In this document: positions 1,610-15,075 of the stretch, in pieces
Position numbering within the stretch: position 1 is the stretch's first letter
How the letters are laid out: every line of letters starts with the position of its first letter
DNA from: Promethearchaeota archaeon
GTDB lineage: Archaea > Asgardarchaeota > Lokiarchaeia > Sigyniarchaeales > SOKP01
Assembly (NCBI GenBank): GCA_011364925.1
Contig: RDOA01000042.1
Location: forward strand, 1-33,571
Direction of reading: 5' to 3'
Length of the DNA stretch: 33,571 bases
Notes under the pieces: model-generated
What the model was told of the DNA's origin: nothing
Databases searched by the model: none
What the model saw: only the letters and a program-made list of their open reading frames with translations
Made by a program: the position numbers and the translations under genes

Positions 1610-1799
1610 TTTCTGAACTCACTTCTTTTATAATTCGTTATTAAACATATGATTATCTACTAATTTATATATATTTCTTTTTAAAAAACTTAGTAAAAAA
1701 GGATATTTTAGTATCCGTACAATCTAATTTTTCCAAATTGGTTCCATTTTTTAAAATAAACGATATAATTATTAATAATTGCTTGAACTAGAATTAATT

Positions 1800-3290
1800 A
1801 TGTCAAAAAGAAAACTTACTTGGCCTAACCATCCTAGGATACTGGAAATTAACACATGGCCTTGGTTAACAAACTTGTCTGATAAACTCGGGAAGGATAT
1901 TAAATTAAGCGATATACCCATTGATTTGTTATACCAAGAAATATCAGTTTTTGATGTTGTTTGGTTAATGGGAGTTTGGGAACGTAGTCCGATGGGAAAA
2001 GAAATAGCTATGAATAACGAGAATTTACAAGAGGAATACCGAAAAGCAATAAGATATATTAGCAATCAAGATGTTGTAGGCTCGCCCTATTCAGTTTATT
2101 ATTACCACGTTAGCTCTCAATTAGGCGGTTCGGAGGCGCTAAAATCTCTCCGAGAAGACTTAGCAAAACGTAGTATACTACTAATATTGGATTACGTACC
2201 TAATCATGTTTCAATTGATCATCTCTGGACTCTCGAGAAGTCTGACCTATTTATAAGAGGGACATTGAATGATCTGATGACAAAGCCGTACGACTATTTT
2301 TCAGTAGGAGATAGAGTTTATGCGCATGGAAGGGATCCTAATTTTCCACCTTGGACAGACACAGTTCAAATAAACGCGTTTTCTAAAGAGGCACGCTCAA
2401 AAGCTATTAATACTTTACTCTCAATAGCTCAACTTTGCGAAGGTGTTCGCTGTGACATGGCAATGTTAATGACAAACAGCGTGTTTAGCAAAACTTGGGG
2501 TGAAAAAGCTGGTTCACCACTTGAAAAAGAGTATTGGGATGAAATAATTTCAACTGTAAAAGAGAAACATCCTAATTTTAAATTCATAGCGGAAGTGTAT
2601 TGGGATATGGAAATGGATTTAATTCAGCAGGGATTTGATTATTGTTATGATAAGAAACTGTATGATTATTTGACGCATTTTAATGTTATCAAAATAAAGA
2701 GCTATTTAGACTCCGATTTGCAATATCAAAGCAAACTTCTTAGATTTATTGAAAACCACGACGAACCACGAGCAATAACCATATTCGGTCACGAAGCATC
2801 TAAAGCTGCGTCTGTAATAGCTACTACGCTACCTGGCGCAACTTTGATTTATGAAGGTCAAACCAGAGGATCTAAAATAAAACTCCCAGTACAATTGAGT
2901 AGGGGACCTATCGAGGAAGATGACGAAGATATAGTGGAACATTATAACAATTTATTAAGAATAATCCCTGGAAGAGAGTACGATAACGCGATGTGGTCAT
3001 TATGCGAAGTGAAACCAGTTGGTCCAAACGATAGTTCTTATAACAAGATTATATCTTATCAATGGCTAGTAGATAATCAAAGGTTATTAATTATAATTAA
3101 CTACAGTTCTATTCTCTCTAAAGCGCATATAATCTTAAATGATATAAGTTACGAGACCTTTAATTGGAGGTTTATCGATCTTTTAAATAAGAAGGAGTAT
3201 ACATATAAAGGAGAAGACCTAACGAAATATGGGTTATATGTTGAGTTAGATGGCTGGAGGAGCCATATCTTTCGCGTAGAGAAAACTTAA
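1800..3290 (+). CDS. Alpha-amylase family glycoside hydrolase (GH13)
   Basis: GH13 motifs LDYVPNH, GVRCDMA (nucleophile Asp), FIAEVYW (acid/base Glu) and IENHDE. ATG at 1800 preferred over TTG at 1779. Confidence 0.9.
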   Translation: MSKRKLTWPNHPRILEINTWPWLTNLSDKLGKDIKLSDIPIDLLYQEISVFDVVWLMGVWERSPMGKEIAMNNENLQEEYRKAIRYISNQDVVGSPYSVYYYHVSSQLGGSEALKSLREDLAKRSILLILDYVPNHVSIDHLWTLEKSDLFIRGTLNDLMTKPYDYFSVGDRVYAHGRDPNFPPWTDTVQINAFSKEARSKAINTLLSIAQLCEGVRCDMAMLMTNSVFSKTWGEKAGSPLEKEYWDEIISTVKEKHPNFKFIAEVYWDMEMDLIQQGFDYCYDKKLYDYLTHFNVIKIKSYLDSDLQYQSKLLRFIENHDEPRAITIFGHEASKAASVIATTLPGATLIYEGQTRGSKIKLPVQLSRGPIEEDDEDIVEHYNNLLRIIPGREYDNAMWSLCEVKPVGPNDSSYNKIISYQWLVDNQRLLIIINYSSILSKAHIILNDISYETFNWRFIDLLNKKEYTYKGEDLTKYGLYVELDGWRSHIFRVEKT

Positions 3291-3298
3291 GCGAACTT

Positions 3299-5155
3299 CT
3301 AATGAACAGTAACGGTTTTTGCTAGATTAAGTGGTTGATCAGGATCAAGATTGTGTTTTAATGCAGCGTAATAAGATAACAATTGCAATGCTGGAATAAA
3401 AGTTATAGGACTAAAAATGCTATAATATTTATTTCCCGGTTGTGGAATTCTTATTGTTGCATCACTTAAGTTAGTTATGACTTCATCGTCATCAACTACA
3501 ACCGATATTATTTTTCCTCCTCGTGCTTTAAATTCCATTACATTCCCTACAAGTCTTTGATAAGTCTCGTCAGGAGGTGCAATAAAAATAATTGGGAATC
3601 CTTCTCTGACTAAAGAAATTGGACCATGTTTTGCATGAGCAGCAGAATAACCTTCGATAAAACGACATGCTACTTCTTTTAATTTCAATCCACCTTCTTT
3701 GGCAGTAGCAATTGATATCCCTCGAGCGAGGAAGAAGAAATTATGGCTTTTTTCTAAATTATCAACTACATTTTTAATCAGATCGCTATTTCTGCCTATA
3801 AACTCTTCAATAATATTTGGTGTACTAAATAATGCTTGGTAATATTTTTTAAGGTCTTCGTCGGAGAGTATCTTTCGAAAACCTGCTATTTTTAGTGCGA
3901 TCAAACTTAATGTGAGGACTTGAGTACAATATGTCTTGGTTGCTGCTACACCAATTTCGGGACCTGCTTGTGTAACTATCACATGGTCAGAATATCTCGT
4001 AAGTGATGATCCAACGACATTAGTGATGCTCACAATCTTAATTTTTTTTTGCAATTTATCTTTTGCCCATCTTATTGCTTCTATGAGATCAACCGTTTCT
4101 CCCGATTGTGAAACAGCTATAATAACAGAATCTTCTTGTAGAGAATCTCCCAATTGAATTTGAAATTCAGAACATTCAATTGCTTCTATGTATTTGCTTA
4201 GGAATTTAGTGATAATAAATTTTCCAGCTAATGAAGCATAGAATGAAGTCCCAGCTGCTGTAATATAGATGTGTTTTGCTCCCCAAATTACTCTTGCAAG
4301 CTCCGCGATCTTTTCATCAGGAATCTTTAGTGTTCTCCTCAAAGCTACAGGTTCTTCATGTATTTCTTTCAACATGAAATGGTCGTAACCTCCTTTTTCA
4401 GCAGCATCTATACTCCACTCAATATTTTGGAGTTCTTTATCCTTAGGTTTTGATAAGTCATCTAATTCGTAGAATTCAACATCTCCGGCTTTTAAAATCG
4501 CAATTTCATCGTCATCCATTATGTAGCAAGAACGTGTATAGGGAAGGAATGCAGGAATATCAGAAGCACAATAAGAAGTTTTTCCTTTTTCGATCCCAAT
4601 TACTATTGGTGATTCTTTTCTAACAACAATAAAATAATCTGGACAATCAGCATGACATATTGCTATGCCATATGCTCCTTCGCATCTTTTTATCGCTTTA
4701 GCAACAGCTTCTTTAAAGTCTAACTGAGAAGACATATAATCTTCAATCAGATGGGAGATAACTTCAGTGTCAGTGTCCGATGTGAAGATATGACCTTTCA
4801 TTTTTAATTCTGCTTTTAATTCAAGAAAATTTTCAAGAATTCCGTTATGAATTACTGCGATTTTTTTGTTGCAATCTAGATGAGGATGAGCATTTAATTT
4901 CGTAGGTGGTCCATGTGTAGCCCATCTTGTGTGGGCTAACGCTAATTTGGCGTCAATAGGAAAATCATCTAACTTAAGTTTCTTATGTATCTCATCTATT
5001 TTTCCCGCATCCTTTTTCACCAGGAGTTGGGAGTTGTAGTGGACTACTATTCCGCAAGAATCATAACCTCTATATTCTAAGCGTTTTATTCCTTCTAAGG
5101 CTACCTTTCCTAATGAAAGTTTTTGATTAGTTATTATTCCAAATATGCCACACAC
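3299..5155 (-). CDS. glmS: Glutamine--fructose-6-phosphate transaminase (isomerizing)
   Basis: Starts MCGIFG (catalytic Cys; GTG start), with LEYRGYDS, HTRWATHG, HNG, SQSGET, GPEIGVAATK, LKLKE, KHGP and NLAKTVT. Confidence 0.97.
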   Translation of the reverse strand: MCGIFGIITNQKLSLGKVALEGIKRLEYRGYDSCGIVVHYNSQLLVKKDAGKIDEIHKKLKLDDFPIDAKLALAHTRWATHGPPTKLNAHPHLDCNKKIAVIHNGILENFLELKAELKMKGHIFTSDTDTEVISHLIEDYMSSQLDFKEAVAKAIKRCEGAYGIAICHADCPDYFIVVRKESPIVIGIEKGKTSYCASDIPAFLPYTRSCYIMDDDEIAILKAGDVEFYELDDLSKPKDKELQNIEWSIDAAEKGGYDHFMLKEIHEEPVALRRTLKIPDEKIAELARVIWGAKHIYITAAGTSFYASLAGKFIITKFLSKYIEAIECSEFQIQLGDSLQEDSVIIAVSQSGETVDLIEAIRWAKDKLQKKIKIVSITNVVGSSLTRYSDHVIVTQAGPEIGVAATKTYCTQVLTLSLIALKIAGFRKILSDEDLKKYYQALFSTPNIIEEFIGRNSDLIKNVVDNLEKSHNFFFLARGISIATAKEGGLKLKEVACRFIEGYSAAHAKHGPISLVREGFPIIFIAPPDETYQRLVGNVMEFKARGGKIISVVVDDDEVITNLSDATIRIPQPGNKYYSIFSPITFIPALQLLSYYAALKHNLDPDQPLNLAKTVTVH

Positions 5156-5379
5156 AGTAATGTTTCACTATTATCTTTATTCGAGTTTTTTAGAACATTA
5201 TACAATAAATCTGCTTAAATTTTTAATATTTTATTTTTCTGATTTAATCTTCGTTGAAATATTGTTAATTAAATTAAAAAAAGATAAAATCTATTTTAAC
5301 ATTATTAAAGCTTTTTAGTGTTGTATGTCTTAGCTGGTAATAATTTTATTCTTGTCTAGAAGCGTTTGGTAAAAGAAAT

Positions 5380-6474
5380 ATGGATGAAATTTTATCGTTA
5401 GGTAGATTTACTCAAAAAGAGATTTTTGAAATTCCTTCTTCTTTAAGAAAAATCATTGAGCAAAGAACACTTATAAATAAACTAGCAAAAGTCATTGTTG
5501 AAAAAGAAGTTAAACATATTTTTCTTATAGGTGCTGGTAGTTCCTACCATGCTGGATTTGCAATGTCTTACATGTTCAATAGGATAACAAGTATCCCCAC
5601 ATTTACGGAATTTTCAATGGAATTCCAGTATCTTGTGAAGCCTATATTAGCAAAAGAAGATTGCGTAATTGCAATTTCTCAGAGTGGCGAAACAAAAGAC
5701 ACCATAGAGTCTATTAGGATTGCAAAAGAATTTGGTTGTTTAACGATTGGAATTACTAACAATCCGGATTCTAATTTAGCTAGAATAAGTGATCACACAA
5801 TAAATTTAAATAGTGGGGATGAAAATTCGGTTCTTGCCACAAAAACATATGTTGCACAATTAGGAGCATTAGCAGTCTTATCGCTCGAAATTGCAGAAGA
5901 AAAAAAATCCATTAAAAGTGAAGAAATTAATTCTATTTGGATTGAATTAGTGAGAATTCCAGATAAAGTACACTCAATCTTGCCAATTCTTCATGAAAAT
6001 ATCAAGAAGCATTCAAATTTTTTAAAGTCCACTCGTTTTTGTTTTATTCTTGGGAGTGGTCCCGACTATGCTACTGCCATGGAAGCCGCTTTAAAATTGA
6101 AAGAGGGAGCAAGAATTTACGGTCAAGCCTATTCTACAGCAGAATTCCCTCATGGACCAATTACTCTTGCAGATTCTGATACTTGCATTATAGCAATTAT
6201 TCCACACGAAGAGGATAATAGAAAGGCTCATCTATTACAATTATTAAAGCGAATCAAAGAGAGAAACGCACAAATTCTTGGAGTATACGAAGCTATTAAA
6301 AATGAGAAAATGCCAGAATACCTTGATATTAGCATTAGAGTCCCCAATACAGTTATGGATTTACAACCAATAGTTATGATATTAGCAGTGCAGTTATTAA
6401 CTTTAGAGATTGCGAGAACAAATGGTTTAAACCCTGATGAACCAAAATTTCTAACAAAAGTTAGTAATTTCTAA
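5380..6474 (+). CDS. Double-SIS-domain protein (GlmS isomerase-domain paralog; GlmD-like glucosamine-6-P deaminase or sugar-P isomerase)
   Basis: GAGSSYHA, ISQSGET, SVLATKT, EAALKLKE, EFPHGP and PDEPKFLTKV motifs; no glutaminase domain. Confidence 0.85.
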   Translation: MDEILSLGRFTQKEIFEIPSSLRKIIEQRTLINKLAKVIVEKEVKHIFLIGAGSSYHAGFAMSYMFNRITSIPTFTEFSMEFQYLVKPILAKEDCVIAISQSGETKDTIESIRIAKEFGCLTIGITNNPDSNLARISDHTINLNSGDENSVLATKTYVAQLGALAVLSLEIAEEKKSIKSEEINSIWIELVRIPDKVHSILPILHENIKKHSNFLKSTRFCFILGSGPDYATAMEAALKLKEGARIYGQAYSTAEFPHGPITLADSDTCIIAIIPHEEDNRKAHLLQLLKRIKERNAQILGVYEAIKNEKMPEYLDISIRVPNTVMDLQPIVMILAVQLLTLEIARTNGLNPDEPKFLTKVSNF

Positions 6475-6490
6475 TATGATTAAGGTTAGG

Positions 6491-7915
6491 TTAAATTAGA
6501 TTTAACTCTTCCATCTTTTCTTTTGCAATTTTGTTGAATTTTATTGTTGTCTTTAAATCTGTTTTTGATTCACCCGAAATTCTAAGATATGGGCTTGTAC
6601 CAGAGCGTCTTATTAAAATCCATCCGTCATCAAAATCAAACCGACACCCATCCAATGTATTAGTTCTATTAATCTTAATTCCTTGATTGTCAAATGTTTC
6701 TTCCATTTTTTTAATTATTTTTTGATAAATCTCCTTGGTGAATGGAACATCTTTCTTCAGCCTGAATTTCTCAGCATGATAAGGGTAATTAGGTATATCC
6801 TTTAATAATAATCGAAGATCTTTTCCAGATTCAACAATCATCTGTAATACTTTTGCTATTGTGACGATAGAATCGGGACCATAATGGAATTCTGGCCATA
6901 TATAGGTACCAGAAGTTTCTCCCCCTAGAAACCCTCCTTGTTCTTTTAATGCGATTGCAACCTTGATATCTCCCACTTCTGTTCGGATAACCTCGCATCC
7001 GAGAGGATTTAAAACGTCTTCAACTAAACTTGAGGAATTGATAGGTGTTGATACTTTCATAGTTTTAGCTATTGAATTCTCTTTATTTTCAAGTAGAATA
7101 AACCTAGCTAAAAGCGTGAGTAAACGAATTGGATCAACGATTGCCCCATCTTCGTCTAAAAAGATCACTCGATCTGCGTCACCATCAAGAGCTATACCAA
7201 TATCTGTGTGAGCGGACATCCTCAAGAACTCAGAAATTTGAGTTAAATTCTCTTCACTTGGTTCAGAAAGTCTTCCGGGGAATCTTCCATCAGGGTTAGC
7301 ATTCAGAGTAACGATATTTGAGTTAAATTTACTTAATAACTTCGGAACTATATCGCAACCACATCCATTTCCCGGGTCAACAATAATATTTAGATCACTT
7401 GCATCAATCATGATCTTACGAGTGATATTTGATATATGGATATCGTTTATATCGTTAACTTGTGTTACCTTACCAACTTCGTACCATTCGATTTTAGCAT
7501 AATCTTTATCGTTATAGATTCGCTCTATTTCATCTTCCTGTTCTGGGGAAAACCCTACTCCAGAAGGATTCCAAAGTTTCAGCCCGATATATTCAGGAGT
7601 ATTATGCGAAGCTGTAATCATTACTGATGCTTGTGCGTTTAAATATCTACAGGACATCGCTAATGTAGGAGTGGTAACAATGCCTAATGTTTTAATATTA
7701 CAACCAGTACTCACCAAACCAGAGATTAAAGCGTATTCTATGGGTAACGCTGAAGTCCGGATGTCCCTTCCAATTACTACAGTGCCTCCTTTTAAATATG
7801 TGCCTAATGCTAAACCAACTTCTAAAGCCATTTGAGGTGTGAATCTTAAGTCTGATTCGGAATAATTTTGGAATACTCTTCTTATCCCTGATGTACCGAA
7901 TATATTGCTTGTCAT
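6491..7915 (-). CDS. glmM: Alpha-D-phosphohexomutase (phosphoglucosamine mutase / PMM-PGM)
   Basis: FGTSGIR, phospho-Ser loop ITASHN, metal loop DGDADR, sugar loop GGETSG and RRSGTSP. Adjacent to glmS; the GlmM specificity is inferred from context. Confidence 0.8.
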   Translation of the reverse strand: MTSNIFGTSGIRRVFQNYSESDLRFTPQMALEVGLALGTYLKGGTVVIGRDIRTSALPIEYALISGLVSTGCNIKTLGIVTTPTLAMSCRYLNAQASVMITASHNTPEYIGLKLWNPSGVGFSPEQEDEIERIYNDKDYAKIEWYEVGKVTQVNDINDIHISNITRKIMIDASDLNIIVDPGNGCGCDIVPKLLSKFNSNIVTLNANPDGRFPGRLSEPSEENLTQISEFLRMSAHTDIGIALDGDADRVIFLDEDGAIVDPIRLLTLLARFILLENKENSIAKTMKVSTPINSSSLVEDVLNPLGCEVIRTEVGDIKVAIALKEQGGFLGGETSGTYIWPEFHYGPDSIVTIAKVLQMIVESGKDLRLLLKDIPNYPYHAEKFRLKKDVPFTKEIYQKIIKKMEETFDNQGIKINRTNTLDGCRFDFDDGWILIRRSGTSPYLRISGESKTDLKTTIKFNKIAKEKMEELNLI

Positions 7916-9763: not shown

Positions 9764-11242
9764 ATGAATATAGACGATTTTGAATTAATTTATAAGAATA
9801 ATCGTAAAGAAATAAAAAATAAAACATTAATAAAAACTGAATTGAGTGAATTTCTTGGAGAAAAGAATGTTTCAATAAAAAATGCTGATTTACTTGCTTA
9901 TACAAGAGATTCAAGTCTTATTGCTTTAAATTGGACAATCCAAGGAAAAATTGCAGGCTTACCAGATTTCATTACTTGGCCAGAAACTAAAGAACAGATT
10001 TCCAAGATTTTAAAGCTTGCGAATAAGGAGAAGATTCCTGTAATCCCCTACTCTGAGGGATCTGGAGTTGTTGGAGGATCTATTCCAATTTATGGTGGAA
10101 TCATTATCGATATGAAGAAATTTAATAAAATATTAGAAATAAACGATAAAAACCTCACAGTTACGGCTCAAACAGGGATAAATGGGATGAATTTAGAACG
10201 ATATTTGAATTCTAAAGGTTATACTAGTGGTCATATACCCCAATCGCTTTATACATCTTCTTTGGGTGGGTGGATCGCGCATAGAGCTGCGGGTCAGTTT
10301 TCAACGAAATACGGAAAAATTGAAGATATTGTTATGGGTATGGAGGTTATTTTACCCCTAGGTGAAATTATCAAGTTTAAACCTATTGCGAGAGCGGCTA
10401 CAGGTCCTCAACTTGATAAAATGTTTATAGGAGGGGAAGGTACGTTGGGAATTGTAACAGAAGCAACGTTAAAAATTTGGCCCTATCCAGAAAAAAGAAC
10501 ATTGATCTCTTATTCTTTTCCAACAATAGAAGATTCGTTTAATGCAACGAGAGAAATCCTTAGAGAAAATGTCTATCCCGCAGTGATAAGAATCTATGAT
10601 GTACACGAAACTGACAGGCATTTTTCTGAAGTTGAAAATGCGAAGAAAAGAGTAATGACAGTTTTTGTGTGTGAAGGAAATAAAAAGCTAGTTGATGTAG
10701 AGGAAGCAATAACAAGAGAGATGTGTGAAAAAAATGCGGGGATTAACTGTGGAACTGGTCCTGTGGAGCATTGGTTTGAGACAAGATTTAGAGTAACTGA
10801 AACATCTACTATGTCGCCCTACAAATTAGTGTATGATACGGTTGAAGTTGCCTCGTTATGGGATAGAGCTGCGAGAATCTATCACTCTGTTGTAGAAGCT
10901 ACTGATAGGATTAAAGGAAATTTGTTAATTACTGCTCATGTTTCACATTTTTATGCTAATGGTGTTGGTACTTACTTCACATTTGGTGGCGTACCTCCAA
11001 AAGGAGTGTCTGATCTTGAATTTTACCAAGAGTGTTGGGATTCAATTATTAAAGCTGTTTTAGAAGCGGGTGGTTCTATTGCACATCATCATGGAATAGG
11101 TATTAATCGAGCTCATTGGATGAAAAAAGAATGGGGAACTGCAATAAATGTGATGAAAGATATTAAAAAATTGCTAGATCCTAGTAATATTCTCAATCCT
11201 GGCAAAATTTACGAGGATATATGGAAAGGAGGTGTTGAATAA
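9764..11242 (+). CDS. FAD-binding oxidoreductase, VAO/PCMH family, alkyl-dihydroxyacetonephosphate synthase (AGPS/ADPS)-like
   Basis: FAD loop PYSEGSGVVGG, GHIPQS..SSLGGWIA.RAAGQFSTKYGKIED, GGEGTLGIVT, PAVIRIYD, GTYFTF, the HHHGIG triad and DPSNILNPGK. Confidence 0.88.
   Translation: MNIDDFELIYKNNRKEIKNKTLIKTELSEFLGEKNVSIKNADLLAYTRDSSLIALNWTIQGKIAGLPDFITWPETKEQISKILKLANKEKIPVIPYSEGSGVVGGSIPIYGGIIIDMKKFNKILEINDKNLTVTAQTGINGMNLERYLNSKGYTSGHIPQSLYTSSLGGWIAHRAAGQFSTKYGKIEDIVMGMEVILPLGEIIKFKPIARAATGPQLDKMFIGGEGTLGIVTEATLKIWPYPEKRTLISYSFPTIEDSFNATREILRENVYPAVIRIYDVHETDRHFSEVENAKKRVMTVFVCEGNKKLVDVEEAITREMCEKNAGINCGTGPVEHWFETRFRVTETSTMSPYKLVYDTVEVASLWDRAARIYHSVVEATDRIKGNLLITAHVSHFYANGVGTYFTFGGVPPKGVSDLEFYQECWDSIIKAVLEAGGSIAHHHGIGINRAHWMKKEWGTAINVMKDIKKLLDPSNILNPGKIYEDIWKGGVE
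11228..11234 (+). promoter_or_regulatory. Ribosome-binding site GGAGGTG for the 11243 gene
   Basis: GGAGGTG lies 8 nt before ATG 11243; the upstream TAA abuts this ATG. Confidence 0.7.
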
Positions 11243-12517
11243 ATGGGTGCTTTTGAAACATTGAAAAAGTATAAATGGATGATTCCTCTTCTTAATAAAG
11301 CAGATAGGGACATTAAATCAATACTTATGAAAAACATGCGCTCGAAAGAAAAGAATTTTTACCCAGAAGGAGAATATAAAGCTGATGTAGATAACCTAAT
11401 TAAATGTATGTTATGTCCAAATATGTGTCGATTCGATTGCGGCACACTTCAAGCTTCGCAAACTGAAAGCATGAGTCCCTCGTATAAAGCGAGAATAGGA
11501 TACTATCTAACAATTGGTAAGATTGACCCAACCAAGGAAGAAAATAGTGATTTCATTGACTTTATGTATAAATGCTCCAATGAGGAAAACTGTAAGATTT
11601 GGTGCCCATTTGGATTTTCAGTAGTATCATTATTAGAAACTGTAAGAGACGATTTAAACAGCAAAGGACTTACGCCCGATTATTGTAAAGAACAAATTAA
11701 AAAGTTAGAAGAATCAAACACAATAGAAGGTTATAATATCTACGATACTTACAAAGAACATGGTATTGAAAACATCGAAACCGAAGGGAATGACGATGTG
11801 TTTTATTATATTGGTTGCGAATCGATGAAATTTCCCGATGTAATAAAAGCTAATATTAGTATCCTACAAAAAGCTGGAGTTAAATTTTCAACGAATCTTG
11901 AGAAAAAGGTTTGCTGTGGGGGGCCATCATTTAACATAAGAGATTCTGATACAGCAGAAAAATTTGCTAAAAAAAATCAAGAACTGATTGAATCTACTGG
12001 AGCTAAAATCATTGTATCCGATTGTCCTGGTTGCGTTCTGACACTCACAAAAAGGTATGAAAGTATAGGTATAAAAATAGAGAAAAAAATAATTCACATT
12101 GTAGAATACATCAAACAATTGTTAGAAGAGGGAAAGATAAACCCTACTAAAAATGTACCTGTTGAATTGAAAAAGGTGACAATTCATGATCCATGTCTCA
12201 TAGCCAGAAATTTAAATGATACTGCTTCAATTAGGGCCATACTAGGTAGAATTCAAGATTTAGAAATAGTTGAGCCGATTTATAATAAGGAATATGTCCA
12301 TTGTTGCGGATGGAGCGGTACTGCTCATTGGGCTGACAGAGTACTAGCTATTAAGGAAGCTTCAAATAGAATAGATGAATTACGGGAAACAGGAGCTGAA
12401 GTTTTTGTATCAGCATGTCCTTTGTGTGAATTAGGATTGAATTATGGGATTAACCCAGAAGAGAAAGAAAAGTTTAAAATACTAGATGTATCTGAATTAT
12501 TAGTAAAAAGCCTTTAA
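11243..12517 (+). CDS. Fe-S oxidoreductase with ferredoxin-like and two CCG domains (GlpC/GlcF/HdrD family)
   Basis: CMLCPNMCRFDC and degenerate CSNEENCKIWCP, then YYIGC..CCGG..DCPGC and HDPC..CCGW..ACPLC. Confidence 0.9.
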   Translation: MGAFETLKKYKWMIPLLNKADRDIKSILMKNMRSKEKNFYPEGEYKADVDNLIKCMLCPNMCRFDCGTLQASQTESMSPSYKARIGYYLTIGKIDPTKEENSDFIDFMYKCSNEENCKIWCPFGFSVVSLLETVRDDLNSKGLTPDYCKEQIKKLEESNTIEGYNIYDTYKEHGIENIETEGNDDVFYYIGCESMKFPDVIKANISILQKAGVKFSTNLEKKVCCGGPSFNIRDSDTAEKFAKKNQELIESTGAKIIVSDCPGCVLTLTKRYESIGIKIEKKIIHIVEYIKQLLEEGKINPTKNVPVELKKVTIHDPCLIARNLNDTASIRAILGRIQDLEIVEPIYNKEYVHCCGWSGTAHWADRVLAIKEASNRIDELRETGAEVFVSACPLCELGLNYGINPEEKEKFKILDVSELLVKSL

Positions 12518-12527
12518 AGGTGATAAG

Positions 12528-13991
12528 ATGAGCGATTTAATATGTGTATTTGATGTAGGTACTACTGGAACAAGAACAGTGATCTTCGATAACAATGGAA
12601 AGGAAATAGCCAGAGCTTATGAAGAATATGTAATCCCCTCTCAACCAGTAGGAATCTCGGAGCAAGCCCCTCAAGTTTGGTGGAATGCAATAAAAAATAC
12701 TTCAAATATAGTTATGAAGAGTGGAAAATTCGACCCGAATGATATTGTGGGAATTTCAGCTTCATTTGCTAGGGGAACTACAACACTAATAAATAAAAAT
12801 AGAGAAGTCTTGCACCCAGCATTAACCTGGATGGATGAGAGAGAATTAACTGATGCAAAGGGATTTAACGAAGAGTTAACTTGGAGGAATTCAATTCCGA
12901 AATTGTTATGGTTAAAGAAAAACAAACCAGACTTATTTTCTAAAGCTTTTAAAATTGTTTGTCCCGATTCATATACTTATATGAAGTTATGTGATGAAAT
13001 TGTAACAGATCCAACAAATGCAATCAATGGAATTTTAAATTTAAGAACTCTAAAATTAGATAATGAACTTGCAGAAGCATATGAGATTCCACTAGAATTA
13101 TGGCCTGAGGTACATCGTCCTGGTGAAGTGATTGGTGAATTATCTAACAAGGCAGCGAATGAATTAGGAATTAATAGAAATATTCCTATATTTTTAGGTG
13201 GTGGAGATCAACAATGTGCTTCTTTAGGGCTTGGTGTAATTGAAAATGGAGATGCAAAAACAACAACAGGCACTGGTACTATTGTAGAACTTGTTGTTGA
13301 TGAACCAATAAGAACATCAGGAGAAATACCAATATTCACTTTTCCACATTTGATTGAAGGTAAATGGGTTCTTGAGGGTGTAATGCCTGGTACGGGAACG
13401 ATGTTTCAAACATATGCAAGAAACTTTTCACAATTACAACTGAAAGAATCTGAGGAATTAAGCACAAGTGTTTACGATATATTGACCAAAGAAGCTGAGC
13501 AAGCCCCTCCTGGTAGTAATGGTTTATTGTTCGTTCCTCTCTATATATTTAGGAAAGGAACAATACATGGATTAGGTTGGCACCATGGTAGACCACATTT
13601 TGCCAGAGCGATAATGGAGAGCGCTGCATTATCTGCAAATATGTATTTAGGTATGCTTGAGGCTATAGCAAGAGTAAAAACCACTGAAGTAAAGGTAGAT
13701 GGAGGTGGAATGCATAGCGATTTATGGGGACAAATATTTGCGGATATAATGGATAGGAAAATTTTAATCCCTGAAAATAAAGATGGAGGAGCACTTGGCG
13801 CAGCGATATTAGGCTTTTATGGTGCTAGAACATATAACACAATAAAAGATGCTATTAATAGCATGAGCAGATTTGTCTCTGAGAAGAACCCAATAAAAGA
13901 AAACGTAAAAGCTTATAAGAAACTTGTAAGGCTATTCATGCCTACTGTTCTCGAAACTAATGAAAAGAAAAGAGTTACAAAAGATTTATAG
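12528..13991 (+). CDS. FGGY-family carbohydrate/polyol kinase (xylulokinase/glycerol kinase-like)
   Basis: FDVGTTGTR, TWMDER, GGGDQQCA, TTGTGT, APPGSNGL, VDGGG and ALGAAIL motifs; AGGTGA RBS upstream. Confidence 0.92.
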   Translation: MSDLICVFDVGTTGTRTVIFDNNGKEIARAYEEYVIPSQPVGISEQAPQVWWNAIKNTSNIVMKSGKFDPNDIVGISASFARGTTTLINKNREVLHPALTWMDERELTDAKGFNEELTWRNSIPKLLWLKKNKPDLFSKAFKIVCPDSYTYMKLCDEIVTDPTNAINGILNLRTLKLDNELAEAYEIPLELWPEVHRPGEVIGELSNKAANELGINRNIPIFLGGGDQQCASLGLGVIENGDAKTTTGTGTIVELVVDEPIRTSGEIPIFTFPHLIEGKWVLEGVMPGTGTMFQTYARNFSQLQLKESEELSTSVYDILTKEAEQAPPGSNGLLFVPLYIFRKGTIHGLGWHHGRPHFARAIMESAALSANMYLGMLEAIARVKTTEVKVDGGGMHSDLWGQIFADIMDRKILIPENKDGGALGAAILGFYGARTYNTIKDAINSMSRFVSEKNPIKENVKAYKKLVRLFMPTVLETNEKKRVTKDL

Positions 13992-14238
13992 TTCAATTTC
14001 AAGAAAAAATGGGACGAATTCCTTAGAAGAAATCCTAGATCAATTAGTTCTATATACTTTTTCATTTAAAAGCACGAAATTATGTGAAAAAAATTCAGTA
14101 ATTTTTACATTTTAGTTTCTAATTAGTAGAATATTTTCAAAGAAAATAAAAGAAAACCTAAAGGGTGTTCATTTTAGAAAAGTATTTCTTGACTCTTTTA
14201 TTTAAAAATTTAAACCCAAGAAATTAATTTGTGATACC

Positions 14239-15075
14239 ATGCCCTTCTTTAGAAACCAAGAAGGATACAATTTATATTACGAAGATATCAATGGAGAAAT
14301 TAAGGAGCAGACCAAAGGTACGATAATCTTGCTTCATGGTTTCGCCTCCTCAGCTTCATTTTTCAAAGGGCAAATAAAAATGTTAAAAAATTCTTATCGC
14401 ATTATTGCTTTCGATGCGTTAGGGCATGGTAAAAGCGATCATCCCATAAAGTTGAATCTTTCTAAAAATTTACGGTATGATATTATTAGAGATTTGGAGG
14501 ATTTGTTAAAGCATTTAGGAGTCGACGAAAATTTTGGAATTATCGGTCATTCGTTAGTAGGTGGTATGATTGGTCAACTAATTAGTATAGCTCACCCTGA
14601 AAATGTTGATTTTCTCATTTTACTTAATTCAGGATATATCATGATTGATAATGTAATTAGAAATATATTTTACAATCTACTCCCGTATTTTATTAGGATA
14701 AATTTCTTAGACGTTGTTGCCAATTCTGTTGAAACTATCTTAGATAAAATTATACCTTACATCCTAACTTCATTAGCGGACTCTATAAATGGGATGAAGT
14801 TAACGAAAGATGAATTGTATATGCTTATAGAAGACCAAATCTTCGGAATGATTAAGGAAATTAATGAGTATGACCCCTCCGGAATTAATTGCCCGACACT
14901 TATTATTGCTGGTCGATTAGATAATTTCGCTCCAGAACAAATGTCTGAAGAACTGCATAAGAAAATTCCAAACTCTCGTTTGGAAATATTGGATATGGCA
15001 GGACACTTCGCACCAGCTCAACGAAAGGAGGTAATTAACGAGTTAATATGCGATTTTATAAAAGATCTTGATTAA
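14239..15075 (+). CDS. Alpha/beta-fold hydrolase (esterase/lipase-like)
   Basis: Oxyanion motif LLHGF, FDALGHGKS, nucleophile elbow GHSLVGG, acid in GRLD and His in AGHF. Confidence 0.9.
   Translation: MPFFRNQEGYNLYYEDINGEIKEQTKGTIILLHGFASSASFFKGQIKMLKNSYRIIAFDALGHGKSDHPIKLNLSKNLRYDIIRDLEDLLKHLGVDENFGIIGHSLVGGMIGQLISIAHPENVDFLILLNSGYIMIDNVIRNIFYNLLPYFIRINFLDVVANSVETILDKIIPYILTSLADSINGMKLTKDELYMLIEDQIFGMIKEINEYDPSGINCPTLIIAGRLDNFAPEQMSEELHKKIPNSRLEILDMAGHFAPAQRKEVINELICDFIKDLD

Follow-up and report, generated by a model that had tools for sequence, protein, structure and literature searches.

The window, that is, the whole stretch of 33,571 nucleotides of Promethearchaeota archaeon DNA analysed here (contig RDOA01000042.1, our C52, of a 3.9-Mb genome with a completeness score of 100% and a contamination of 4.2%), carries three closely packed genes. 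They encode a flavoprotein of the clade of alkyl-dihydroxyacetone phosphate synthase (AGPS), an iron-sulphur (Fe-S) protein with CCG domains and a kinase of the FGGY family, and a gene for an alpha/beta hydrolase follows (Table 1). The stop codon of the flavoprotein gene is followed at once by the ATG that starts the CCG gene, and the gaps between the four open reading frames (ORFs) are 0, 10 and 247 bp. Shine-Dalgarno (SD)-like sites stand before the CCG and kinase genes; none was seen ahead of the flavoprotein or the hydrolase gene. This agrees with the tight three-gene arrangement described in an earlier sequence-only reading of this DNA, which had proposed an ether-lipid or alkylglycerol pathway. 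A scan for promoters and terminators at the locus gave a result at chance level, and none of the four proteins reached an NCBIfam equivalog cut-off.

The synteny survey that the sequence-only reading had recommended bears out the linkage of the three genes. The CCG gene follows the flavoprotein gene in 76 of 80 Promethearchaeota-type (Loki) loci, the other four stopping at a contig edge, and an FGGY kinase lies downstream in all 68 loci that have sufficient downstream DNA. Such a conserved gene order shows that the arrangement is not due to chance; note that the compared loci are related and not independent of each other. Among 201 sampled Asgard genomes, an AGPS-like gene is present in 131 at E <= 1e-50 and in about 110 at E <= 1e-100. 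Literature searches on the operon, on the function of YgcU (the Escherichia coli homologue discussed below), on an Archaeoglobus homologue and on alkylglycerol catabolism returned nothing relevant. In summary, the module is real, conserved and, so far as these searches reach, uncharacterised.

Table 1. Genes and putative ribosome-binding sites of the module and the hydrolase gene behind it (positions in the window)
Feature	Position	Strand	Basis
AGPS/YgcU-clade VAO-family flavoprotein, 492 aa	9764..11242	+	Pfam FAD_binding_4 + FAD-oxidase_C
SD-like GGAGGTG, within the last flavoprotein codons, ahead of the CCG gene	11228..11234	+	sequence
GlpC/GlcF/HdrD-type Fe-S (CCG) subunit, 424 aa	11243..12517	+	Pfam CCG x2 + Fer4_8
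SD-like AGGTGAT, in the 10-bp gap ahead of the kinase	12518..12524	+	sequence
FGGY kinase of Asgard 'type A', 487 aa	12528..13991	+	Pfam FGGY_N/C
Alpha/beta hydrolase, 278 aa, putative triad S105, D228, H256	14239..15075	+	Pfam Abhydrolase_1

The flavoprotein and its Fe-S partner

The motifs that the sequence-only reading had compared with peroxisomal AGPS (EC 2.5.1.26; PDB 2uuu, 4bby) are all present and align to guinea-pig AGPS: GHIPQS lies at residue 156, LGGW at 167, PAVIRIYD at 272, GTYFTF at 402 and HHH at 441. Arg276 corresponds to R419/R352 of AGPS, Tyr404 to Y578/Y508 and His441-443 to the HHH loop (guinea-pig His615-617), where R419 and Y578 are guinea-pig numbers and R352, Y508 and R447 follow PMC3509576. 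Also shared are the fold, the motifs of the FAD domain and, with the Dictyostelium enzyme, an HxSHxY strand.

The closest PDB sequences are Dictyostelium AGPS (E = 2.5e-65) and guinea-pig AGPS (5e-59), with LDHD at 9e-43. When the AlphaFold model of the flavoprotein (pLDDT 95.9) was submitted to Foldseek, the top 29 matches were all AGPS (E = 9e-45, TM-score 0.87). The VIA-align comparison is a tie between LDHD (Z 41.9, root mean square deviation (rmsd) 2.6, 443 residues aligned) and AGPS (Z 41.1, rmsd 2.1, 465 aligned), although AGPS gives the lower rmsd and the longer alignment. In two trees the AGPS-like clade, with the window protein in it, stands apart from GlcD-type proteins (support 98-100), contrary to the grouping that the sequence-only reading had named as evidence against itself. 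The FAD plus CCG modules of GlcD/GlcF and D-lactate dehydrogenase have the same two-subunit architecture and fold, whereas the active site differs: HSHxY, Arg, Tyr and HHH are found where GlcD has GEH (2-hydroxyacid type), and the TIGR00387 (GlcD) score is 228 bits against a cut-off of 568. The flavoprotein is a member of the AGPS clade and distinct from GlcD. In the same larger clade (support 97-98) we find E. coli YgcU, which is 33% identical to the flavoprotein over 442 residues and likewise has a short cap and no PYxRD motif.

On the other hand, the window protein is not a canonical AGPS, for which R352, Y508 and R447 are listed as catalytically important and a C16 channel with a gate-keeping helix is described (PMC3509576). 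The position of R447 (Arg447/515), which we placed at the arginine of PYIRD by counting along the AGPS alignment (offset +3), reads VTETSTMS in the window protein, and an Arg in the PYxRD stretch was found in 0 of the 77 Loki proteins scored. The cap insert (residues 270-306) has 37 residues, compared with about 60 in AGPS and 53-59 in the long bacterial PYxRD proteins, since after Arg276 the segment falls short of that of AGPS by some 20 residues; in the actinobacterial PYxRD proteins the insert is short, too (41-43 residues). Furthermore, the window flavoprotein has no N-terminal extension, is Fe-S-coupled, stands in a catabolic rather than an acyltransferase context and falls in a separate subclade.

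These differences bear on the possibility that we are dealing with a true alkyl-dihydroxyacetone phosphate (DHAP) synthase for ether lipids of the bacterial or eukaryotic type, as would follow from the name alkyldihydroxyacetonephosphate synthase that many database entries for AGPS-like proteins carry automatically. The conserved Arg, Tyr and HHH would fit, and genes of acyltransferase families do occur elsewhere in the genome. However, Arg447 is missing, the cap insert is short, the operon has neither an acyltransferase nor a reductase (unlike the Streptomyces cluster described below), the neighbouring genes are catabolic and an exchange reaction needs no redox partner. We therefore regard a synthase as very improbable, and the evidence argues against the automatic annotation.

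Several AGPS-like proteins have additional parts. In P0126, P0128, P0130 and about 30 other representatives (720-1000 residues), a full AGPS-like unit is followed by a second, degenerate FAD-oxidase unit, and there are fusions to a PfkB kinase (P0208) and to a HAD hydrolase (P0235).

The CCG protein has two intact CCG domains (CX31-39CCX35-36CXXC) and an intact first ferredoxin-type motif (C55/58/62/66); in the second (C111, E114, C117, C121) Glu114 replaces a Cys, as it does in 73 of 75 Loki sequences. It also has a basic N-terminal extension that is found in Loki and close lineages. Natural fusions of flavoprotein and CCG protein occur in Bacillota, and the predicted complex of the two window proteins scores 0.94, compared with 0.02 for the best control; the mark for this score was attained by 58 of 80 solved complexes and by 2 of 110 mismatched pairs. 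At least 91% of the contacts agree between runs, and the pLDDT of the partner is 91. In the predicted interface the first cluster motif (residues 60-64) touches residues 141-143 and 163-164 of the flavoprotein, beside the FAD-binding GHxPxS loop, and the interface also takes in the N-terminal extension of the CCG protein and the cap residues 281-288 and 342-355 of the flavoprotein. Since pairs of FAD-oxidase and CCG genes are common in this genome (at least seven others), the score may partly reflect a general likeness of these families. Judging from the fusions and the modelled heterodimer, the Fe-S protein is the predicted redox partner of the flavoprotein, in line with the electron-carrying role that the sequence-only reading had assigned to a GlpC/GlcF-type protein. 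Genes for electron-transfer flavoproteins (ETF/Fix) take the place of the CCG partner in ygc-type clusters, and none of the PYxRD-clade loci inspected has an adjacent CCG or ETF gene, which is weak evidence as it comes from a single clade. Other fusions were seen nearby: in three Bacillota a CCG-FngA fusion of about 940 residues lies directly behind the AGPS-like gene (L181:5712-8534, L182:9854-12670, L183:5865-8687), and locus L199 has an FngA-FngB fusion.

The kinase and the GlpA-type dehydrogenases

The window kinase scores 245 bits with XylB (cut-off 380) and 146-169 bits with GlpK (cut-offs 498 and 590). The residues R83, E84, Y135, D245 and F270 of GlpK are described as identical across GlpK clusters (PMC3245297), and E84 and Y135 as forming hydrogen bonds with glycerol hydroxyls (PMC3245297, PMC2680290). 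At these positions the window kinase has R82, G83, a deleted segment, D227 and I252, so that two signature residues are lost and a third is changed; W103 and Q246 (GlpK numbering) are retained. The M-H pair of E. coli XylB at 83-84 is replaced by R-G, and in a kinase tree, which is a quick one with long branches, the protein falls in a clade separate from XylB. By its residues and scores it is neither a plain xylulokinase, an outcome that the sequence-only reading had counted against its proposal, nor a plain GlpK. A paralogue (56%) is encoded at C48:85988-87445.

The kinase slot of the 68 Loki loci is filled by type A in 56, by a kinase of the GlpK clade (type B) in 10 and by both in 2. The type B kinases of these 12 loci score 462-474 bits against the GlpK cut-off of 498 and read R-A-D-D-F at the five signature positions, and the linked GlpK-clade kinases of Gelria (616 bits, exceeding the 498 cut-off) and Microbacterium read R-A-V-D-F. 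Thus, two kinase lineages linked to the AGPS-like gene are both without E84 and Y135. Unlinked control kinases keep R-E-Y-D-F, namely the kinase at C16:38861-40399 in the same genome and a separate glpK beside the operon in L199. E84 and Y135 presumably cap the C1 hydroxyl of glycerol, the published accounts speaking only of hydrogen bonds to glycerol hydroxyls; if so, their loss would make room for a substituent at C1 or for a longer chain. In actinobacterial clusters a DAGK/YegS lipid kinase is found in place of the FGGY kinase, so that for this subclade at least the substrates may be lipid-like.

The kinase at C16:38861-40399 (L171:7862-9400, minus strand) belongs to the FGGY family, scores 361 bits with XylB and 347 with GlpK, both under the cut-off, and with its intact GlpK signature is probably the real glycerol kinase of the organism. 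Local duplications were also observed: L049:7992-17183 has the AGPS-like gene twice and the type A kinase three times, and L014 and L042 have two kinases each. They suggest a widened substrate range.

The absence of glpA and glpB from the window, to which the sequence-only reading had pointed, holds for all 80 Loki loci, and GlpB was not found in this genome. It does not extend to the GlpA family as a whole. At C36:21445-24611 (L169:6446-9612, minus strand) the genome encodes, with no adjacent kinase, a GlpA-family protein of 489 residues, a pyridine-nucleotide oxidoreductase of 432 and a small subunit of 129. This layout is that of the electron-bifurcating glycerol-3-phosphate oxidoreductase FngABC (PMC13689815; bioRxiv 10.1101/2024.02.29.582781). 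An FngA subunit is present in 57 of 61 genomes of the window's family, which suggests electron-bifurcating oxidation of glycerol-3-phosphate in Lokiarchaeia.

Outside Loki, GlpA-type and other dehydrogenases often lie next to the AGPS-like gene. In distant Asgard families, 24 of 34 loci have glpABC or fngA no further than about 7 kb away, and kinase-glpA-glpB-glpC-AGPS-like-CCG is a frequent order. The order in Gelria sp. Kuro-4 is fngA-fngB-fngC-AGPS-like-CCG-kinase, and FngABC is near the AGPS-like gene in 9 of 20 sampled Bacillota loci. GlpD is the neighbour in Novosphingobium, Microbacterium and three actinobacteria; other bacterial pairings are with GlpABC, with a glycerol dehydrogenase plus a short-chain dehydrogenase/reductase (SDR), and with an SDR in the ygc cluster of E. 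coli. Each of these partner types makes a ketone of the DHAP type, which is the substrate class of AGPS chemistry. In L121, L122, L126, L130 and L136 the GlpA linked to the AGPS-like gene has a Ser for the His of the HSG/HGG motif, a change that is consistent with an altered substrate.

These findings can be set against the second option of the sequence-only reading, in which the flavoprotein stands in for GlpA/B as a non-canonical polyol-phosphate dehydrogenase; in the catabolism of plain glycerol it would be a glycerol-3-phosphate dehydrogenase. The glpA/B-free Loki loci, the resemblance of the CCG subunit to GlpC and the near-GlpK scores of the type B kinases in 12 loci would all fit such a replacement. 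However, FngABC is encoded in the genome and throughout most of the family, a kinase with an intact GlpK signature exists in the same genome, relatives keep GlpABC, FngABC or GlpD within the very same operon, and in L199 a separate, canonical glpK-fngA pair lies next to the AGPS-like operon. We have rejected this option as highly improbable: the AGPS-like module is additional to the GlpA-type enzymes and not their substitute.

Known glycerol catabolism by GlpK and GlpABC or FngABC (PMC13689815) nevertheless resembles the module in its logic of a kinase followed by a flavin dehydrogenase and in its GlpC-like subunit, and it is usually its genes that lie beside the AGPS-like gene. The window flavoprotein differs in that it belongs to the VAO family and is unrelated to GlpA.

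A possible pathway for C1-substituted glycerols

Most of the sampled clusters pair the AGPS-like gene with a kinase, with a dehydrogenase that forms a DHAP-type ketone, or with both. Together with the operon anatomy, the clade membership, the residue gains and losses, the co-occurrence and the fusions observed, and with the predicted heterodimer, this leads us to infer the following reaction steps. In our estimate there is an even chance that the module serves to degrade a glycerol with a substituent at C1 (X-glycerol) rather than to build ether lipids; X would most simply be O-linked, which would make the substrate a glycerol monoether.

First, the kinase with its opened glycerol pocket would phosphorylate C3. 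A GlpA-family dehydrogenase would then oxidise C2 to give X-DHAP; this is presumably the FngABC complex of C36 acting in trans, with GlpABC, FngABC or GlpD taking the part in cis in relatives. AGPS itself acts at C1 of a ketose phosphate (PMC3509576). By analogy with its chemistry, Arg276 and the HHH loop would bind the ketose phosphate and Tyr404 would take the C1 proton, after which the carbanion would add to N5 of FAD and X would leave. Finally, the adduct would be hydrolysed with no fatty alcohol being added, and the reduced flavin would be re-oxidised through the docked ferredoxin/CCG subunit. The outcome could be a net oxidative cleavage to a C3 ketoaldehyde phosphate, or DHAP could be released while the Fe-S subunit keeps the FAD oxidised under anoxia. 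AGPS requires FAD in the oxidised state, and after reduction by the substrate the enzyme is stable, even toward oxygen (PMC3509576), so that an anaerobe lacking the second substrate that releases the adduct would plausibly need an Fe-S partner. In addition, none of the genes in the Loki or Gelria operons was recognised as an isomerase, aldolase or transketolase; if a triose phosphate is formed directly, this is what one would expect.

Several points weigh against this reading. Apart from the relatedness of the loci, the structural tie with LDHD, the missing Arg447 and the doubt about the complex score, AGPS-type cleavage is redox-neutral, and a plain dehydrogenase would account more simply for an electron partner. 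The operon and the gene of the GlpA-type enzyme are unlinked in Loki. The loss of E84 and Y135 is as compatible with a longer unsubstituted polyol as with a substituted glycerol. Finally, some subclades adjoin XylB-like kinases, PfkB, aldolase-like genes and sugar ABC transporters, which means that the AGPS-like family is not monofunctional.

Many of these points lead to an explanation that we consider possible, if clearly less probable, namely that the flavoprotein and the CCG protein form a plain two-subunit dehydrogenase, GlcD/GlcF-like in architecture with an AGPS-derived site, which oxidises a hydroxyl of an unsubstituted polyol or ketose phosphate and cleaves no C-O bond. It might act on a C4-C5 polyol phosphate or turn sn-glycerol-1-phosphate into D-glyceraldehyde-3-phosphate, and would operate in parallel to the GlpA-type enzyme or in series with it. 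The obligate Fe-S or ETF partner, the departures from AGPS at Arg447 and in the cap, the opened kinase pocket and the sugar-type contexts of other subclades speak for it, as does the view that many FngABC enzymes use other polyols (PMC13689815). On the other hand, two oxidations of a plain polyol phosphate would yield no obvious central metabolite without the isomerases that were not recognised in the operons, the linked kinases keep the glycerol frame R83/W103/D245/Q246/F270 and not the XylB signature, and the actinobacterial homologues have a lipid kinase within the same gene logic. Moreover, the residues that the flavoprotein has retained are those of C1 carbanion chemistry on a ketose phosphate.

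For the C1-cleavage reading, the nature of X is a separate question. The first option of the sequence-only reading, phosphorylation, oxidation and ether cleavage of alkylglycerols from sediment lipids, fits the comparative evidence best in its order of steps and found no support for long chains, with the cap features of AGPS partly missing. A long-chain ether lipid is rated low because the cap differences disfavour a C16 channel like that of AGPS and because the transporter types found in other clades point to soluble compounds; we consider it quite unlikely. A wider proposal is an oxygen-independent cleavage of glycerol monoalkyl ethers, those of lipid length included, through phosphorylation, oxidation to alkyl-DHAP and covalent ether cleavage at flavin N5 by an AGPS relative connected to an Fe-S subunit, which we regard as unlikely. 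Were it true, Asgard archaea and anaerobic Bacillota would share a conserved ether-cleavage route of which E. coli and actinobacteria have variants, and AGPS chemistry would serve catabolism in most prokaryotes, with one subclade using it for biosynthesis. For Microbacterium, a halide might be X, though this is a passing idea: strain J1-1 degrades chlorohydrins, and the paper reporting this draws no link to its AGPS-like cluster. On a plasmid of Methylobacterium nodulans (L179:10034-13649) the AGPS-like gene points the same way as pdxA and the gene of a four-carbon acid sugar (tetronate) kinase; a 2-substituted tetronate phosphate, if oxidatively decarboxylated, would be another source of a C1-substituted DHAP.

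If the module does degrade C1-substituted glycerols, a missing catabolic pathway for these compounds would be identified, possibly an anoxic sink for sediment glycerol ether lipids, and AGPS-type flavin chemistry would have a redox use. A function would then also suggest itself for the E. coli cluster ygcNOPQRSUW-yqcE-ygcE, which is annotated as uncharacterised and likewise combines an FGGY kinase with a dehydrogenase and a partner for electron transfer, although it has an SDR and ETF/Fix instead of a GlpA-type enzyme and a CCG protein, MFS transporters, and a kinase that is 23% identical to that of the window. As the AGPS-like gene also occurs in cultured bacteria such as Gelria sp. Kuro-4 and E. 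coli K-12, the question is directly testable.

Eukaryotic AGPS and the remaining neighbours

The PYxRD-type proteins group in a subclade of their own (support 99-100), with members in Streptomyces, actinobacteria, some Bacillota and one Asgard genome. The Streptomyces protein adjoins an acyltransferase and an SDR, and the actinobacterial proteins adjoin glpD and a lipid kinase. The latter cluster, glpD-tetR-AGPS-like-DAGK, which we take to be of the Rv2249c-Rv2252 type, shares with the window module a kinase, a glycerol-3-phosphate-type dehydrogenase and an AGPS-like enzyme; it differs in having a lipid kinase for the FGGY kinase, a PYxRD enzyme and no Fe-S partner. Against Dictyostelium AGPS, the acyltransferase-linked Streptomyces protein scores 387 bits, a glpD-linked protein 298, a Bacillota PYxRD protein 234 and the window protein 224. 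Eukaryotic sequences were kept outside the tree, with PDB scores and motifs serving as a proxy, and by this proxy eukaryotic AGPS appears to resemble the PYxRD subclade more than the window protein. The short Asgard sequences interleave with bacterial ones, and their monophyly was rejected (p-AU 1e-35, in a quick tree and for a group defined once an earlier tree had been seen). Nothing here supports the view that eukaryotic AGPS came from Asgard archaea, and a published phylogeny points to actinomycetes as the source of the peroxisomal enzyme (PMC1472686). The bearing on this origin and on the lipid divide that the sequence-only reading had expected is weak, and our finding says little on either. 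The Asgard PYxRD protein is encoded at L138:7023-8651 (genome G086, family f5, in which 1 of 21 genomes has such a match); it is long, reads PHLRD, is of the type nearer to eukaryotic AGPS and has no adjacent CCG gene.

The hydrolase gene, which the sequence-only reading had attached to the pathway as lipase-like, is indeed co-oriented behind the kinase gene. The label is not specifically supported, as all NCBIfam hydrolase matches are far under the cut-off (lipase V, 44 against 300 bits). Matches to the hydrolase are confined to the window's family (f1) and two other genomes, and are absent from the distant Asgard and the bacterial AGPS-like clusters. In genus g3 the hydrolase is present in 4 of 4 genomes, three of them 98-100% complete, and the AGPS-like gene was found in 0 of 4. 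The gene travels with mazG and purC. Being restricted to a family, kept without the AGPS-like gene and missing from distant clusters, it was rejected as a member of the pathway.

In L130, L136 and other loci of family f7 the operon runs on to a radical SAM gene, a small ORF and an aldehyde dehydrogenase, an extension not seen beside the module in Loki or bacteria. Further upstream in the window (1779-7915), there is a conserved amino-sugar block with an alpha-amylase-family gene, glmS, a gene for a stand-alone SIS protein and glmM, as far as tested unrelated to the module. Directly upstream of the flavoprotein gene lies an ORF of 490 residues (window:8170-9642, plus strand) without a Pfam or NCBIfam match. 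It is co-oriented at this place in 61 of the 80 Loki loci and missing in others, and its Atlas features weakly hint at an alpha-alpha toroid of the prenyltransferase/squalene-cyclase kind (0.89-0.90, low recognition).

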